From positions 1-46,600 of the IMG/VR virus record IMGVR_UViG_3300048861_000262: a stretch of DNA of 46,600 nt. One strand, given 5' to 3'. Below, in pieces: positions 31,723 to 44,885 of the stretch. The notes under the pieces are model-generated. The model was given only the letters and a program-made list of their open reading frames with translations. It was not told where the DNA came from and searched no databases. A program made the translations under genes and the position numbers. Origin of the DNA: a virus. Its lineage: Duplodnaviria > Caudoviricetes. How positions within the stretch are numbered: the first letter of the stretch is position 1; each line of letters begins with the position of its first letter.

Positions 31723-32007
31723 ATGAGCGAAGTAACGCGAACCGAAATCGAAACGCTTCATGGTAGGATCAGCGACTTGAAAGAGCGCGTTGTCAATCTG
31801 GAAGCACAGCAGCCGCATATCAACGCTGCACTTCTTCGCATTGAAGGAAGCGTTGGTAAGGTTGGAGAGCAATTCGAGGAACGTTTTGACCGTCTCACCA
31901 AAAAGATCGGAAATGTAGCCTGGGCGTTCATCGTCCCTCTGATTGCTCTTATTGTTGGTGTAATCTTCAAGGTCATCTTTTCCGGCGCTCTAGCGCATTA
32001 TATTTGA
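31723..32007 (+). CDS. Coiled-coil protein with C-terminal TM (lysis region)
   Basis: Coiled coil followed by hydrophobic helix. Confidence 0.7.
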   Translation: MSEVTRTEIETLHGRISDLKERVVNLEAQQPHINAALLRIEGSVGKVGEQFEERFDRLTKKIGNVAWAFIVPLIALIVGVIFKVIFSGALAHYI

Positions 32008-32066
32008 TTTCATCTTGACAACTTTTCTAGGCGCATGTTGCGACCAATTCACTTTGAGGTCGCACC

Positions 32067-32270
32067 ATGACGCTTGTTCTCGTTCGTATCTTCCTTCGCT
32101 ACCTTGCCGCGTTCCTCGTGACGCGTGGCCTGATGTCTCAAGATATCAGCGATATCTTTTCGACCGATCCAGATTTTGCAAACGGTCTAGACCTACTTCT
32201 AGGTAGCGCCATCGCCGCCGCCGCCGAGGGATGGTATTACCTCGCGCACAAATTCGGGTGGCGGAAGTGA
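32067..32270 (+). CDS. Putative holin
   Basis: 67 aa, two hydrophobic segments, basic C-terminus; GAGG RBS; upstream of spanins. Confidence 0.65.
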   Translation: MTLVLVRIFLRYLAAFLVTRGLMSQDISDIFSTDPDFANGLDLLLGSAIAAAAEGWYYLAHKFGWRK

Positions 32271-32533
32271 TCTGGATGGCGGCGGCTTACAACGCGGTCA
32301 AGTCTGTACCGGCATGGGTCTATGCGGCCCTCGTTGCCCTAATCATCATCTGCGCTTCTGGCTATGGCCTGTATCGAGCCGGTGCCGCTTCTGAGCGCGC
32401 CAAGGCGTTGCAGCATTCCGTTGACGTGCTTCGCGAAAGGAAGTCTACCGATGAAGAAATTCACAATCTGTCTGACGCTGATCTTTGCCGCAAGCTTGGC
32501 GGGGTGCCAAACGACAACGGCGAATGTCTGTGA
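32267..32533 (+). CDS. Putative i-spanin (Rz-like)
   Basis: GTGA overlap; N-terminal TM, short periplasmic helix with Cys residues. Confidence 0.7.
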   Translation: MIWMAAAYNAVKSVPAWVYAALVALIIICASGYGLYRAGAASERAKALQHSVDVLRERKSTDEEIHNLSDADLCRKLGGVPNDNGECL

Positions 32534-32660
32534 TGGCTGGTCGAAGCTAACGCCATCGTCATCGACGCGTACATTCATTATAGGGCAAGACCGATCTTTT
32601 GCCGAACAGGTCGCAGCACACAATAGCTTCGGCGCTTCGCAATCCTGCTGGAAAAATTAA
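32451..32660 (+). CDS. Putative o-spanin lipoprotein (Rz1-like)
   Basis: MKKFTICLTLIFAASLAGC signal with LAGC lipobox; overlaps i-spanin in another frame. Confidence 0.8.
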   Translation: MKKFTICLTLIFAASLAGCQTTTANVCDGWSKLTPSSSTRTFIIGQDRSFAEQVAAHNSFGASQSCWKN

Positions 32661-34978: not shown

Positions 34979-35144
34979 TGTCAATTTCTTTCAAAAGGGT
35001 TGCGGCTCTGGCGTGAAGAGTGCCGGTTGAGTGTGCCGCGACATGACGCAAAACTGCCCTGATCATGGCCCGGCTTCTGTTCGGAGAGCGGCGCAATAAA
35101 TGAGCCGCGCTCCAGAATTTGCGTGTCTCTTCGGCAAGTGGCAT
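34944..35144 (-). CDS. Hypothetical protein between recE-like gene and recT
   Basis: TAATG coupling with exonuclease stop. Confidence 0.5.
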   Translation of the reverse strand: MPLAEETRKFWSAAHLLRRSPNRSRAMIRAVLRHVAAHSTGTLHARAATLLKEIDNGTAEYPPRAG

Positions 35145-36004
35145 TAGGCCGCTGCCTGTTCCTCATCCAAGGCGTTCGGCGCTTCGGTGTGACGGTAGGC
35201 CCAACGGTTGAATGAAAGTTCCTGCACGCCATCGCCATAAGCAGGCCAACGGTTGTTGGCTTTGCATTCGTGATAGGTGTCGAGCGCCTTGCGCATCATC
35301 ACGCGGCCTTCTTCGACAATCGACGGCGGAAGCTCGTAGACGGCGAACGCGAACGGCTCCTCTTTCTCGAAAGTGAGGAACGCGAACCAGTCAACCGGCA
35401 TATCGAGACTTTGCCAGCCGTCAGAATAGAACGCTTCCTGCGCGTGGTAGCCGTATTCGATAACCGATTTCGCGAAGGCGTCAGGGTGGGCGCTCTTGGT
35501 AGATTTTACGTCGAGAATGCCGCGCAAATCCTTGCGGTAAAGGTCGGGACGGATACGGCAAATCTCGCCGGTAACTGGATCGGTAAAATATCCAGACGCT
35601 TCAATCATCGGCTCGCCGCCCGTGACGATTGAGTTGATCCATGGATCAGCATGCACGACATCGCGGATGGCAAGCGTGTTGTCGTAGTCGCCGGAAGTGA
35701 GGAGCAGCTTTTTTTCAATCCGCGCCATCTCCATTTTATCGGTCCACTTATTCCCGCGCCGGTCATCAGGGCCGCGAATAACGACGACCTCGAATTCATT
35801 GGGCTGGAGGATGGCGAGGTGGCAGGCTTCGCCAAAGTCGAAATAAGTCTTTTCCTTGCGCTTCCCGAATTTGAAATGCGCTGGCGACTTTTTGCCGATC
35901 GTGAAGAGGCCGGATTTCGAAATGCCAGGTCCTTCGTGATAGCTCTCATTCGGAATGCCCTGGTAAATGCCGGGCTTAATGTTCTGATCTACGGCAAGCG
36001 TCAT
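35144..36004 (-). CDS. RecE/ExoVIII-like PD-(D/E)XK exonuclease (DUF3799 type)
   Basis: YH..PGISKS, FGEACH, CRIRPD, DVKST, YHAQEAFY; GGAGG RBS. Confidence 0.9.
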   Translation of the reverse strand: MTLAVDQNIKPGIYQGIPNESYHEGPGISKSGLFTIGKKSPAHFKFGKRKEKTYFDFGEACHLAILQPNEFEVVVIRGPDDRRGNKWTDKMEMARIEKKLLLTSGDYDNTLAIRDVVHADPWINSIVTGGEPMIEASGYFTDPVTGEICRIRPDLYRKDLRGILDVKSTKSAHPDAFAKSVIEYGYHAQEAFYSDGWQSLDMPVDWFAFLTFEKEEPFAFAVYELPPSIVEEGRVMMRKALDTYHECKANNRWPAYGDGVQELSFNRWAYRHTEAPNALDEEQAAA

Positions 36005-36118
36005 TGATGTGGCCTCCTGTTGTTAAATGCGAACAACGCAACAGTAAGCGCAACGATGCGAAAACGTCAATAGCTGAAATTCAGAAATTCAGAAATTCAG
36101 AAAAAATCGCATTTGCTG

Positions 36119-36148
36119 TTGACATATGATTAATCATGATGTGTAAAT
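36119..36148 (+). promoter_or_regulatory. Rightward promoter with no downstream CDS
   Basis: TTGACA at 36119-36124, AT-rich -10 region near 36142-36148, operator-like site 36137-36155. Confidence 0.55.
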
Positions 36149-36152
36149 CGCA

Positions 36153-36470
36153 ACAGCAAGAAGGCGACGGGTTGGGATTTCTAGCCGTCTCGTAGCGGCA
36201 TTCACCGGAAATGGTGCCAATCGCCTTTCTTGCGACAGTTTCGCCCTGTGGGCGTCCGAAAAGGTGGGCGGATTTCTGGTTCCTGCAACGCCTTTGTCCT
36301 GTGGAGTAACCAGCGCTTGGCCTCGATACCGGCTCGTGAAGGCACGACGTTAAAACCGGACCAATTGGCTGTACGTCCTTAAACTCTGTCAAGTTTCAGA
36401 CGCTCGCCGTTCCTCCTCCCAGGCGATGCGGCAGGAAGCGCCCGGCATCCTCCTCCCTGCCGGGCGCTTT
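36153..36470 (+). ncRNA. Putative structured sRNA ending in two CCUCCUCCC (cuckoo/alpha-r14-type) hairpins
   Basis: No credible ORF; stem 36156-36167/36221-36233; loops CCTCCTCCC at 36412-36420 and 36449-36457; last stem 12 bp. Confidence 0.7.
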
Positions 36471-36474
36471 CATC

Positions 36475-37101
36475 TCACGGTATGATCGCTAAGACAGGCG
36501 TTGCGGTTTCAAGCATCACCTCGATTATCTTCCCGTTGGCATTCATAATGCGTGCCTCTCCTGTCTTTCTGGCCCGTTCAAGCTTGGCAAGTATCTGCCC
36601 GCCATCACGCGACCGGCATATAGACAGGAAGCCAATCGCCGCATTTTCAACATGATCGGTGTGATTGAACAACACAACCGCATCATCCCATAGCGCGAAG
36701 CATCCGCTTGCCGCTCGCACTTGCGCAGCCAGTACCTTGCCGTTGCCTATCTTGCTGACGGCTGCTTGCGCCCTGTCTATTACCGATTGCGGTAATGGCC
36801 TCGGTTCTTTCAGGCGCTCAAGCGCGCCTGTTTCATTAATAGTTGCCGCAAGAAGTACTTGTGTCGGTAAACCGTCTAAATCGACGGCAACCCCCGCATG
36901 ACTAAGCACTTCCGCAACTGACGCTCCGAGAAACAGAGCAATTGATGTGGCCTCTTCCATTTTCATCCTACGCTGACCAGACAGCATTCGCGAAACGGCA
37001 GATGGATCAACTTCCAAATGCCTCGCTAATCCCCGCACAGATTTACCCCCGACCTCCAGTTTCTGGAGGAACCAGTCCTTATCGATAAGTTGCTTTTGCA
37101 T
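36475..37101 (-). CDS. Prophage repressor (XRE HTH)
   Basis: SVRGLARHLEVDPSAVSRMLSGQRRM HTH; divergent from Cro-like gene. Confidence 0.85.
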   Translation of the reverse strand: MQKQLIDKDWFLQKLEVGGKSVRGLARHLEVDPSAVSRMLSGQRRMKMEEATSIALFLGASVAEVLSHAGVAVDLDGLPTQVLLAATINETGALERLKEPRPLPQSVIDRAQAAVSKIGNGKVLAAQVRAASGCFALWDDAVVLFNHTDHVENAAIGFLSICRSRDGGQILAKLERARKTGEARIMNANGKIIEVMLETATPVLAIIP

Positions 37102-37267
37102 AATCGCCACGCTGATACATTCGGGCACACCATTGCGCACGACTCGTATCGATTGTTGCAAATCCCGCAACAAGTAGCAATGGTGATAGCAATAGCGCTT
37201 TTTTAGTAACGAGCAATACAAAAAATCATCACTAATAATTAATATTAATAGCACGAATGGTATCCTA

Positions 37268-40935: not shown

Positions 40936-41823
40936 TTGTCATCTGATGTTGAACGCCTTCGGCGTGATGTCTCCCTATCTTCTACCGTTTCTAGCTTCGG
41001 CTTCAAATTGGAACGGGACGGCGGCGAATATGTTTGCTGCTGCCCGTTCCATTCCGAAGAGACAGGCTCATTCACGATATTCGGCGGCAAGGATGGCGTT
41101 GAGCGTTTCCATTGCTTCGGATGCGGCGAGCGTGGCGATGTCATGGATTTCGTCCAGAAGATTAAGGGCGTAAACCTACCGGAAGCAATCAAGATACTCG
41201 GCGGCGGCGATAGCTCTCGCCCGAATATCGCCCCTCGCAAGGTCGAGGTAAGAGATATCTATGCTGGCATAGTTCCGTGTGTTCCGCCGTCTGATCCGAT
41301 CGAACGCGGCAAGCGCGTCAAGCTCTACAATCCGAAGCGCAAGGGAGAGCAATCCGAATGGGGATCGTTCGCGCCGTCGATGGTCTTTCCCTATCGCCTC
41401 GTGAACGGCGATCTTCTCGGCTATGTCCTGCGCCACGATATGAGCGACGGCAAAGAAACGCCAATGGTCATGTTCGTTTGCCTGCCTGACGGTACGCAAA
41501 CATGGTGCCGCTTCCCCTTTCCGAAACCTCGCCCGCTTTACGGGCTCGATCAGCTTGGCGATGCCCGGCAAGTGATCGTAGTCGAGGGCGAGAAGTGCCG
41601 CGATGGGCTCGTAAGGGCTACGGGGCGCACGGTCATCTCCTGGCCGGGTGGAACGCAAGGCGTCAAGCATACCGACTGGTCACCGCTGGCTGGTCGAAAC
41701 ATCGTCAAGTGGCCGGATGCTGATGGGCCGGGTCTCGCTACCGCCGACGAAATCGGCTCGATACTTGTCGCCCTTGGCTGCACCTATCGGGTTCTCAACG
41801 TCGTGCAGGGGGCCACGCAATGA
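40936..41823 (+). CDS. Primase: CHC2 zinc finger plus truncated TOPRIM
   Basis: CPFH.E.TGSF, CFGCG, RPLYGL, VEGEKC, WPDAD..G; terminal GWD.AD motif missing. Confidence 0.88.
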   Translation: MSSDVERLRRDVSLSSTVSSFGFKLERDGGEYVCCCPFHSEETGSFTIFGGKDGVERFHCFGCGERGDVMDFVQKIKGVNLPEAIKILGGGDSSRPNIAPRKVEVRDIYAGIVPCVPPSDPIERGKRVKLYNPKRKGEQSEWGSFAPSMVFPYRLVNGDLLGYVLRHDMSDGKETPMVMFVCLPDGTQTWCRFPFPKPRPLYGLDQLGDARQVIVVEGEKCRDGLVRATGRTVISWPGGTQGVKHTDWSPLAGRNIVKWPDADGPGLATADEIGSILVALGCTYRVLNVVQGATQ

Positions 41824-42029
41824 GCCATCACGTTTATTCAGTTCCCGAACTGGTCTTGAGGGAATTGCGCGAGCGCAATGCTCGTTGGGAAGTAAAGCCC
41901 GGCTCCATCCATGGAAAGCTGATCGTCAACGGCGTGTTCTGTGGTGTCGTCTCACAAGGTCGCGGTAAAGATGAGCCGCGTTTCGCCCGCAATCTGCGCG
42001 CACAGGTGAGGCAAGCTCTAGCGAAATGA
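41820..42029 (+). CDS. Small basic protein, HicA-like pattern
   Basis: Coupled at both ends (ATGA); WEVKPGSIHGKL...RFARNLRAQVRQ. Confidence 0.55.
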   Translation: MSHHVYSVPELVLRELRERNARWEVKPGSIHGKLIVNGVFCGVVSQGRGKDEPRFARNLRAQVRQALAK

Positions 42030-43564
42030 CATATTCATTTGATGATTGGCAATCAGGTGCTACGCCTCCCAAAGGATGGGATTGCGCGGATGCGATTGCT
42101 GATGGATGGACTAAGGAAAACCTTGACGCGTTCATGCGGGCGACCGTTCGCGCCTGGACGCCTCCGACGCCGCCAGCGGAAAAGACGCCAGAGAAGGCCA
42201 AGGAAGAGCGCCCGGCTCCTGCCGGTCCTGTCGTGCCGATCTCAAGCGGTTCGCCTGTACGCGAGGCGCGCACGACGCAGCAAGAGCAAGCCGAACCGGC
42301 GACCGTCACGCACTTTCAAACGCGGAAGACGGTCAAGGCTGATGATAATTGGCTGCTCGGCCTCGTCTGCAACGATGAGGGTAAAGTCAAGCCGGGCGTG
42401 ACGAAGAATTGGGCGCTGTTTCTGGAGAACCATGAAGACTTGAAAGGCGTGTTCGCATTCGACGCTTTTAAGATGCGCGTCATGTTGATGAGCAAGCCGC
42501 CGTGGGAAATGGCGCGTAGCTCCTGGGAACCGCGCATGCTCAATGATCGCGACTATAGCGAGGCGGTCATGTGGCTTGAGGCGAAATATATGACGCCGAA
42601 GCAATCGAATATCGCACCGGTAATTCAGACGGTCGCGGAACATTCGAGCTTTGACCGGCTGACGGAATACCTGACTGGCCTCGAATGGGATCGCAAGCCG
42701 CGCATTGCCAAGTGGCTCACATACTACATGGGCGTCGATCCTGATGGCTACTCGGAAACTGTTGGCATGCGTTGGCTAATCTCCAGCGTTGCGCGCGGGC
42801 TAAAGCCTGGGTGCAAAGTCGATACCATGCCGATCCTTGAAGGACCGCAAGGCGCGATGAAATCGACGGCGCTGCGCGTCCTTTACGGAAGCGAGTTCTT
42901 CACTGACGGACTTTCTGACATCGGCTCGAAAGATGCCAAGATGGAAATGCAAGGCGTATGGGGCCTTGAAGTCGCGGAAATGCACAAGTTTTCCGCCGCA
43001 GAAGTCAATGAAGTAAAGAAATTCTTGACGCAACAGATTGACCGTTTTCGCCCTCCATATGGTCGATCTGTGATCGACGCTCCTCGGCGCGTTGTATTGA
43101 ACGGCACAATCAATCCAGAGGGCAACGCCTATCTGCGCGATCCTACCGGAGCGCGCCGGTTCTGGCCTATCACGGTCGGCAGGATAGACATTGACGCGAT
43201 GGCCGCTGATCGCGATCAGCTATGGGCGGAAGCTGTGCATCTGTTCAATCAGAAAACTCCTTGGTGGGTGCAGGAGAATGAGCTTGAAGCGGTTGAGGCC
43301 GAACAAGCGAAGCGAACAGACGTTGACGTTTGGGTTGATCTGATTGTGCCTATGCTCAAGGGCCAAAAGTCCTTAGCTCAAGTCGATATCTTCGCCGGTC
43401 TCGGCATCCCGAAAAAGGATGCTGACTGGAGACATGCAACGCGCGTGGGCCGGATCATGAAAAAGCTTGGCTGGAATGTCGGGCGTGACCGTCGCGGCGG
43501 TGAAGACAAGGTGACGTTCTACAATCCGAGTTTCAGCGAAGACGAGCAAGAGGTTGAATTCTAG
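42026..43564 (+). CDS. VirE/VapE-like replicative ATPase/helicase
   Basis: KPGCKVD, LEGPQGAMKST, FRPPYGR, YLRDPTGARRFWP, RDQLWAEA; N-terminal PKGWDCADA. Confidence 0.9.
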   Translation: MTYSFDDWQSGATPPKGWDCADAIADGWTKENLDAFMRATVRAWTPPTPPAEKTPEKAKEERPAPAGPVVPISSGSPVREARTTQQEQAEPATVTHFQTRKTVKADDNWLLGLVCNDEGKVKPGVTKNWALFLENHEDLKGVFAFDAFKMRVMLMSKPPWEMARSSWEPRMLNDRDYSEAVMWLEAKYMTPKQSNIAPVIQTVAEHSSFDRLTEYLTGLEWDRKPRIAKWLTYYMGVDPDGYSETVGMRWLISSVARGLKPGCKVDTMPILEGPQGAMKSTALRVLYGSEFFTDGLSDIGSKDAKMEMQGVWGLEVAEMHKFSAAEVNEVKKFLTQQIDRFRPPYGRSVIDAPRRVVLNGTINPEGNAYLRDPTGARRFWPITVGRIDIDAMAADRDQLWAEAVHLFNQKTPWWVQENELEAVEAEQAKRTDVDVWVDLIVPMLKGQKSLAQVDIFAGLGIPKKDADWRHATRVGRIMKKLGWNVGRDRRGGEDKVTFYNPSFSEDEQEVEF

Positions 43565-44087: not shown

Positions 44088-44885
44088 ATGTCAAAGGGAA
44101 ATTTTGCAGCATGTTGCGCCGTGACGCTCGGATATGAGGGCGGCATGAGTACGGTAAAGACAGATCCAGGCAACTGGACAGGCGGAGCGGTCGGCAAGGG
44201 AACGCTTAAAGGAACGAAGTACGGTATTGCCGCTTCTGCTTTCCCGAACCTCGATATTGCGAACCTCACGGTTGCCGACGTTCAGCCGATCTATCAGCAA
44301 AAATACTGGACGCCGATCAAAGGCGAACTGCTGCCCGCTGGCGTCGATCTCGCGACCTACGATTACGGCGTCAACTCTGGCCCGGCTCGATCCTCTCGCG
44401 ATCTGCAATCCGTCGTCGGCGTCTGGCCTGATGGCATTATCGGCCCTGCTACTCTCAAGGCCGTGGCCGTGGCTGACGGCAAGGCCACCATTCAAAAGCT
44501 CTGCGCTAAGCGCCTCGGCTTCCTCCAGCATCTGAAAATCTGGAATGCGTTTAAACGGGGCTGGTCAAGCCGCGTTGCCAGCGTCGAAGCGAAAGCCGTC
44601 TCTATGTTCCTCTCTGCCGGTGCGCCGCTCACTGCCGACAATCGTCAAGCCCTCCTGGCGGAAAGCGATGCAGCCGACAAGAAGGCAACCACACAGGCCA
44701 GCACGGCGGGCGGCGCGACTGCTGCGAGCGGCGGGACGATGGTCACGACGGGCGATCATTCCTGGCTGATGATCGCGGGCGCTATCGTGATTGTCGTCGT
44801 CATCGTCGGCGTTCTGGTGGTCATGTACCAGCACAACAAGGCACGCGCCGCTGCCTATGCCGCCGAAGCGAAGGCAGGCGCGTAA
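44088..44885 (+). CDS. Endolysin, glycoside hydrolase family 108 with PG-binding domain and C-terminal TM
   Basis: EGG catalytic motif, DPGNWTGG, GTKYGI, DYGVNSGP, DGIIGPAT, F.RGW..RV. Confidence 0.9.
   Translation: MSKGNFAACCAVTLGYEGGMSTVKTDPGNWTGGAVGKGTLKGTKYGIAASAFPNLDIANLTVADVQPIYQQKYWTPIKGELLPAGVDLATYDYGVNSGPARSSRDLQSVVGVWPDGIIGPATLKAVAVADGKATIQKLCAKRLGFLQHLKIWNAFKRGWSSRVASVEAKAVSMFLSAGAPLTADNRQALLAESDAADKKATTQASTAGGATAASGGTMVTTGDHSWLMIAGAIVIVVVIVGVLVVMYQHNKARAAAYAAEAKAGA

Follow-up and report, generated by a model that had tools for sequence, protein, structure and literature searches.

Phage tRNA slots are customarily read as holding tRNAs only. The antitermination systems with which a structured phage RNA may be compared include EAR RNA and the lambda nut sites. 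Among the RNAs closest to those described below, the cuckoo sRNAs, i.e. CcsR1-4 (RF02791) and ar14/NfeR1 (RF02344), are defined in PMC4615179 as two to four adjacent hairpins in which every loop carries CCUCCUCCC. According to that source, the ar14 model assumes three hairpins and misses the HP2 members; the word 'phage' is absent from its main text, as far as this was available. CcsR1 is freed by RNase E, which cuts at GUUUCC, the CcsR1 5' end (PMC8034643), and NfeR1 silences many host mRNAs through such loops (10.1101/2025.11.14.688489). In the putL RNA of phage HK022, the stem II residues are essential and changes of G35 abolish anti-pausing (PMC9378689). The P1ban leader of phage P1 (dicF-like region, tRNA-Asn, tRNA-Thr) resembles the present locus in that a promoter under repressor control serves one untranslated transcript with tRNAs and a captured sRNA of host type; it differs in its other modules and in its host group. 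In this leader (L324:23700-24350; L numbers designate the loci compared), the dicF-like region is followed by ~450 unannotated nt and then by the two tRNAs.

An RNA slot between the exonuclease and repressor genes

The stretch of DNA analysed here (the window, 46.6 kb) is the provirus record of a temperate podophage. It encodes an integrase, RecE/RecT, a Bcep22-like cI and a Cro-like gene, as established with PHROGs and Pfam, and its end corresponds to the host dusA gene, whose best match within the plasmid collection is Sinorhizobium meliloti (75.5%). The RNA region is bounded by the exonuclease VIII gene on one side and by the cI 3' end on the other, and converges on the repressor gene, as the earlier note on this DNA had stated. 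The surroundings of the slot are as follows.

35144..36004, minus strand: gene of exonuclease VIII (RecE-like), flanking the slot on the side opposite cI (phrog_412, E 8e-80)
36119..36147, plus strand: slot promoter; the -35, TTGACA, occupies 36119-36124, and 36142-36147 is a weak candidate for the -10
36137..36155, unstranded: operator-like site, putatively bound by a CI-like repressor, overlapping the -10/start region
36475..37101, minus strand: CI-like repressor gene, convergent, with its stop codon abutting module M3 (PHROGs and Pfam HTH)

The promoter proposed at 36119 was recovered in part: the TTGACA hexamer is present and the spacing between the -35 and the operator is preserved ahead of a tRNA-Met gene in two relatives (L046 and L047), but no consensus -10 accompanies it and a consensus promoter scan made no call there. 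At the start of the RNA, where an operator had been suspected, an operator-like site was found; it agrees with 10 of the 12 positions of the palindrome TGTTGC-N7-GCAACA and is conserved in the same two relatives. This palindrome is perfect at 37154 and 40892, and is matched at 10-11 of 12 positions in five further places. From it, we infer CI control and lytic timing of the slot, repression by CI implying that expression would fall in the lytic phase. Operator-like copies are dispersed over the window (5341, 33071, 33931, 37154, 37294 and 40892), and the repressor may therefore govern several scattered promoters.

Two reading frames overlap the region, a 103-codon ORF on the minus strand (36081-36392) and a 50-codon ORF on the plus strand (36230-36382). 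Neither has a Pfam match and the homologs differ by indels of 1-2 nt, so that the earlier statement that no credible ORF is present stands.

The slot was compared in six relatives, retrieved via cI or the exonuclease; the CI-like repressor itself is related to Bcep22 cI-like proteins (~30% identity). In two of the six, L046 and L047, a tRNA-Met gene lies behind the same promoter and operator, and in L047 it starts at the exact position at which the first module, M1, starts in the window. The four others have the same cI-exonuclease layout with an empty slot, devoid of RNA; in three of these, a hairpin and U-tract on the strand of cI itself follow its 3' end. The cargo of the slot is thus optional, and the operator is a property of the slot, as it also stands ahead of tRNA-Met. 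Since four of the six relatives lack any RNA, the cassette is not a core component of the switch. An RNA layer of the lysis/lysogeny switch, which the earlier note had envisaged, is for these reasons not retained as the core function, all the more as cI has no Shine-Dalgarno sequence.

Three tandem 8-nt repeats occupy 36076-36103, between the divergent promoters, and a two-copy form of them is retained in five of the six relatives. Elsewhere in the window, primase and a VapE-like helicase are encoded separately, and a small ORF lies between their genes (40936-43564), and the endolysin gene (44088-44885) adjoins the integrase, distant from small membrane-protein ORFs at ~32000-32660.

Separately mobile modules and their folds

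When folded as a whole, the 351 nt of the region were no better than shuffled sequences (z -0.55). No Rfam family reached its gathering level in the window; below that level, ar14 and CcsR1 matched the 3' end of the region only. ARAGORN found no gene in the region, and no tRNA, tmRNA or Y RNA family of Rfam matched it at E<=10. The region was resolved into the following parts.

36156..36237, plus strand: M1, a 78-nt RNA with a 12-bp closing stem and a 4-nt 3' tail
36237..36254, plus strand: junction 1, the motif AGTTTC, which resembles a cut site, and behind it a spacer hairpin (36242-36254)
36260..36313, plus strand: M2a, a pseudoknot made of P1, P2 and P3, found at 10 loci, without Rfam match
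36260-36266/36289-36295, plus strand: M2a helix P1
36276-36281/36308-36313, plus strand: M2a helix P2
36283-36287/36300-36304, plus strand: M2a helix P3
36314..36357, plus strand: M2b 5' part, with a variable hairpin, a short hairpin (36335-36346) and an A-rich strand
36358..36392, plus strand: M2b 3' part, an H-type pseudoknot
36358-36361/36375-36378, plus strand: M2b helix S1, invariant in 7 sequences
36365-36369/36388-36392, plus strand: M2b helix S2, 2 pairs with two-sided changes
36379-36387, plus strand: M2b third strand, A-rich
36392..36397, plus strand: junction 2, AGTTTC, identical to the opening positions of Rfam's CcsR1 model
36393..36475, plus strand: M3, a two-hairpin cuckoo-type sRNA with loops CCUCCUCCC at 36412 and 36449 and a weak U-rich tail

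M1 corresponds to the branched 5' domain of the earlier note. The pairs that close it (36156-36167/36221-36233) have probabilities of 0.93-1.0 except at a sliding bulge, and the module folds with a z of -2.73; the two inner hairpins are not fixed, because several folds fall within 0.5 kcal. No clear homolog of M1 was encountered among phages, plasmids and the fetched loci. A 27/30-nt match to its 3' half, which may be due to chance, lies just past a gene end in a Rhizobiales genome (L165:1501-1530). As for a chromosomal origin of M1 or M2 in the order Rhizobiales, short matches were present in 8 of a sample of 401 genomes, and comprised one known prophage copy, the doubtful L165 and six seemingly unrelated matches.

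A motif related to the spacer of junction 1 was present at 30 viral loci, in 5 of them directly after a tRNA 3' end. In many phages, this motif (AGTTTC and a short hairpin rich in GC) recurs as a punctuation mark within long RNA arrays that are free of genes (L065-L094; L003:2540-3500), and these arrays contain many more unannotated modules. C-rich loop hairpins, also of the host-type anti-Shine-Dalgarno kind, precede it in L066 and L085. A near-cut-off suhB/MmgR match (39.7 versus 41 bits), i.e. a host-type anti-Shine-Dalgarno hairpin in a phage array, occurs at L067:2043-2125, and a weak match to YrlA, which is Y RNA-like (26 bits), at L068:1402-1507 in the RNA array of a jumbo phage. A likeness of the spacer hairpin to lambda boxB, and of the tail of M2b to boxA, was considered and dropped; the loop of the hairpin is variable among the M2a loci.

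M2a was identified at 10 phage loci, the window included. It was present in 3 of the 30 loci retrieved by the spacer motif alone, in 6 of 53 pattern matches, two of which are the same contigs as in the spacer-motif set (the 47 other loci were dropped as the M2a core was absent, and L131 is doubtful), in pLM21S1, and, when 100 loci were screened with a covariance model, in one (L198, 41.9 bits). The model had no match in 49.8 kb of P1. In the eight aligned sequences, 86% of the cells were paired and 5 pairs showed two-sided changes; the covariation score of 0.192, against 0.086 +/- 0.028, was reached by 1 of 500 shuffles. For six of the eight sequences, the pairing of P1 is built in, because they were fetched with a pattern containing both P1 strands. 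Unbiased support comes from L198, which was found without P1 and keeps this helix through three two-sided changes, and furthermore from L070 and from five different outer pairs of P2. Without pseudoknots, the fold of M2a was no better than shuffles (z 0.11). Taken together, the alignment makes the M2a pseudoknot a well-supported prediction.

M2a and M2b occur together in pLM21S1. Eight of the ten M2a loci lack M2b, and in five of these eight a different two-hairpin motif follows 25-62 nt on. In L132, M2a is flanked by genes for head closure and for the tail, and in L095 an exonuclease gene comes after it.

A companion two-hairpin phage RNA, the 'T-motif', whose last hairpin has a GGGAGAGAC loop, is widespread (L166-L285; L003, L095, L098, L121, L132, L198). 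It occurs at no fewer than 120 loci (~150 estimated) in 92 distinct contexts, often immediately ahead of a gene start. Upon comparison with putL, it is not an HK022 put by sequence. Matches in E. coli turned out to be a plasmid tandem repeat.

M2b was found in the N4-like phages ort11, X2_28B and X3_15. In ort11 and X3_15 it occupies, without M2a, the gap between two tRNAs; in pLM21S1 it lies within a gene-free array of ~1 kb. The 5' part is common to L063, pLM21S1, ort11, X3_15 and, in part, L061, and a Methylobacterium prophage (L045) has just the 3' part, located in the leader from which neck, terS and terL genes follow. Two of 17 metagenome matches bear M2b, followed by tRNA-Met in L061 and by a cuckoo pair in L063; the 15 others were dropped on inspection. 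Other homolog searches gave mostly chance matches (39 of 40 loci dropped in one; all but ort11 in a 36-locus set). Allowing up to 2 mismatches, the M2b pattern was present in 1 of the 401 sampled Rhizobiales-order genomes, namely in the known prophage.

In the seven sequences available, 95% of the cells of the M2b pseudoknot were paired, and its score was reached by none of 500 shuffles; S1 never varies, and the change in S2 amounts to one split that separates 4 sequences from the other 3. As for M2a, folding without pseudoknots gave no improvement over shuffles (z 0.96). The M2b pseudoknot is thus a moderately supported prediction. In 7/7 loci, a tRNA 5' end or a U-rich junction marks the point where its 3' helix stops, the flush neighbour being a tRNA, a cuckoo or a spacer hairpin.

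This position could also be explained if the conserved end of M2b were an internal promoter, with TAAACT (36380-36385) as the -10, from which the next RNA (tRNA or cuckoo) starts. The tRNA 5' ends do lie 6-8 nt past the hexamer in ort11, X3_15 and L061, an upstream conserved hexamer is found at a spacing of 16-18 nt, and S1 shows no covariation. On the other hand, the upstream hexamer is unlike a sigma-70 -35. Moreover, the variable letters of the spacer remain complementary to the variable letters past TAAACT: of 37 cells, 34 are paired (91.9%), and two pairs are changed on both sides. A promoter does not predict such complementarity, and the explanation appears very improbable.

The place of M2b between tRNAs is also like that of theta ribozymes, and M2b might be a self-cleaving ribozyme, hatchet- or pistol-like, which separates the tRNA/RNA arrays. 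With assumed letters between hatchet positions G63-G66, A73-A75 and C77, the segment 36341-36357 resembles the hatchet conserved 3' strand, for which PMC6561176 gives these positions. However, the Hatchet (RF02678) and Pistol (RF02679) models gave no match at E<=10, and the hatchet segments C20-A22 and U28-G31 of the same source were not recovered, U28-G31 having no counterpart in the ort11-type copies. A ribozyme is therefore the most improbable of the explanations weighed here. The HDV/theta topology was rejected, as the helix order does not fit.

At the 3' end, the two hairpins described earlier as exposing a cuckoo loop were confirmed: CCTCCTCCC occurs at 36412 and 36449, its sole copies on either strand of the window. 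The hairpin pair folds with a z of -5.0, the MFE structure being identical to the centroid, and as two adjacent hairpins each with CCUCCUCCC in its loop M3 conforms to the structural definition of the cuckoo sRNAs (PMC4615179), as their HP2 variant. Its 5' end, GUUUC, is like the RNase E site of CcsR1 (PMC8034643). The comparison with Rfam proposed in the earlier note gave plus-strand matches, but their scores, 41.7 bits for ar14 and 35.2 bits for CcsR1, are below the gathering values of 58.8 and 65.3 bits; a cuckoo-type RNA is present, short of formal membership. M3 is unlike the known cuckoos in being phage-borne, behind a repressor-type operator, and in having no DUF1127 gene visible alongside. 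Moreover, it is arranged with unrelated structured RNAs, whereas known cuckoos are arranged with further cuckoos. The hairpins have their U-rich tail in the plus-strand orientation, with no such tail behind them in the minus-strand orientation, so that they are not the terminator of cI.

The earlier note saw in the region a regulator fused to ~240 nt of extra structure, and described a large middle domain that GACAG/CTGTC would close. Both strings are present (36234 and 36386), but CTGTC is retained in only 3 of 7 homologs, and this 3' strand goes instead to the covarying pseudoknot helix. The term 'fused' is unsupported as well, because the modules travel separately among unrelated phages. 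A single unprocessed RNA of ~320 nt, belonging to the lysis/lysogeny switch and having 5' domains that scaffold the cuckoo loops or control them, would agree with the presence of one promoter and operator and one 3' U-rich end convergent on cI, and with the recurrence of the M2b-cuckoo junction in L063, where one loop base is changed. It is quite improbable in view of the reassortment of the modules, the enclosing helix that is not conserved, the z of the whole region, the four relatives without RNA and the absence of a Shine-Dalgarno match in cI. The 5' domains, whose lack of conservation or covariation had been named as an argument against the earlier reading, are conserved and covarying as M2a and M2b. 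We conclude with high confidence that the region is a modular cassette of separately mobile RNA modules in a prophage tRNA slot.

Probable processing and possible roles of the modules

Both main junctions of the cassette, at 36237 and 36392, consist of AGTTTC (AGUUUC in the RNA). As our best explanation of the whole, we propose, still tentatively, a cargo cassette controlled by CI and cut by RNase E, which would yield a cuckoo sRNA and a double-pseudoknot RNA. When CI leaves the operator, the cassette would be transcribed in the lytic phase. Cleavage by host RNase E at 36237/8 and 36392/3 would then give RNAs of ~80, ~155 and ~80 nt, of which the middle one would carry a hairpin cap at its 5' end and a pseudoknot cap at its 3' end. 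By analogy with the CcsR1 site, processing into separate RNAs is probable.

The cuckoo loops would pair with the Shine-Dalgarno regions of host mRNAs and silence them, as for NfeR1. Such anti-Shine-Dalgarno activity of the cuckoo is somewhat more probable than its absence. No Shine-Dalgarno sequence complementary to the M3 loops was found at cI, where the match is 2 nt only; host mRNAs are thus the likelier targets, since cI offers no such site to cover. A special phage target of the loops was considered and dropped: ahead of 25 starts, several of which were misplaced so that the survey is rough, complementarity amounted to at most 6 nt.

For M2, an action on the nascent transcript may be envisaged, similar to that of put or EAR RNA, by which RNA polymerase would read through untranslated RNA; read-through past the weak cuckoo terminator would result in antisense transcription of cI. 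This role is suggested by the likeness of fold and by the position of homologs inside operons and leaders, and it is doubtful, if possible; the little need of a 320-nt transcript for antitermination counts against it.

The likeness concerns stem I of HK022 putL, whose topology is that of the M2b 3' part: a short duplex, an AA loop, a pseudoknot helix and a UUAAAC third strand. A descriptor of this topology, composed post hoc when both RNAs were known, matched M2b once in the window and, in 1.30 Mb of loci, four M2b homologs and putL; it had no match in 150 resampled windows. By this post hoc descriptor and by pairing counts, M2b has the pseudoknot, the 5' duplex and the A-rich third strand of put stem I. 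Its identity to putL stem I (18/27) is equalled at 10 other places of the window and is therefore background. Where put has stem II (G45, A64), M2b is followed by a tRNA, a cuckoo or a spacer hairpin, and G35 of put corresponds to G in the window and to T or A in the homologs. Four natural putL variants retain the S2 letters, the bulge, G35 and stem II, which M2b lacks. In contrast to putL, M2b lies at a distance of 200 nt from the promoter, and no gene follows it on its own strand. As stem II is missing, the letters conserved in the variants are absent and the identity is at background, M2b is not a member of put.

With the same cassette and processing, M2 (and M1) could instead be a stable decoy or ligand acting in trans on an RNA-binding protein of host defence or translation, in analogy to the tRNAs of the same slot, which are thought to offset tRNA-targeting defences. 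The location of M2b between two tRNAs in ort11 and X3_15, where tRNA processing would release it, points in this direction, as do the M2b 3' helix at a processing boundary in 7/7 loci, the invariant loops with variable helices, and M1 itself, with a stem of 7+5 bp and a 4-nt tail at the position of a tRNA. M2 may, furthermore, have a likeness to type III antitoxin pseudoknots. Against the decoy, several M2a copies lie within operons between genes, which suits a role in cis; no partner protein was identified, and ARAGORN and Rfam find no tRNA, tmRNA or Y RNA fold. The decoy is on the unlikely side, yet nearly as likely as the read-through role of M2; the internal promoter and the ribozyme are weaker.

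Significance of the cassette

Arrays of tRNAs in phages are an established kind of element, as are cuckoo sRNAs; M2a and M2b are uncatalogued pseudoknot families. Rfam has no match for M2a, for M2b or, among the 20 loci tested, for the T-motif, and no report on such arrays or modules was found in the literature searched, mostly outside subscription journals. In a broader conjecture, to which we give a low probability, M2a, M2b and the T-motif might form an uncatalogued toolkit, widespread beyond the enterobacteria, of phage RNAs that act as antiterminators without a protein and are block-swapped among temperate, N4-like and plasmid phages. Here, they might drive antisense-cI read-through while the captured cuckoo rewires host translation, i.e. 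an all-RNA induction booster.

The locus reveals one slot type that holds exchangeable non-tRNA RNAs, two of which are covarying pseudoknots belonging to no Rfam family. These pseudoknots adjoin a captured RNA which is predicted to be a host-type global translation regulator. Since the modules are also present in cultured Sinorhizobium phages and in pLM21S1, their processing and function are directly testable. Should the pseudoknots act on RNA polymerase, antitermination by RNA alone would reach well past the HK022 group.
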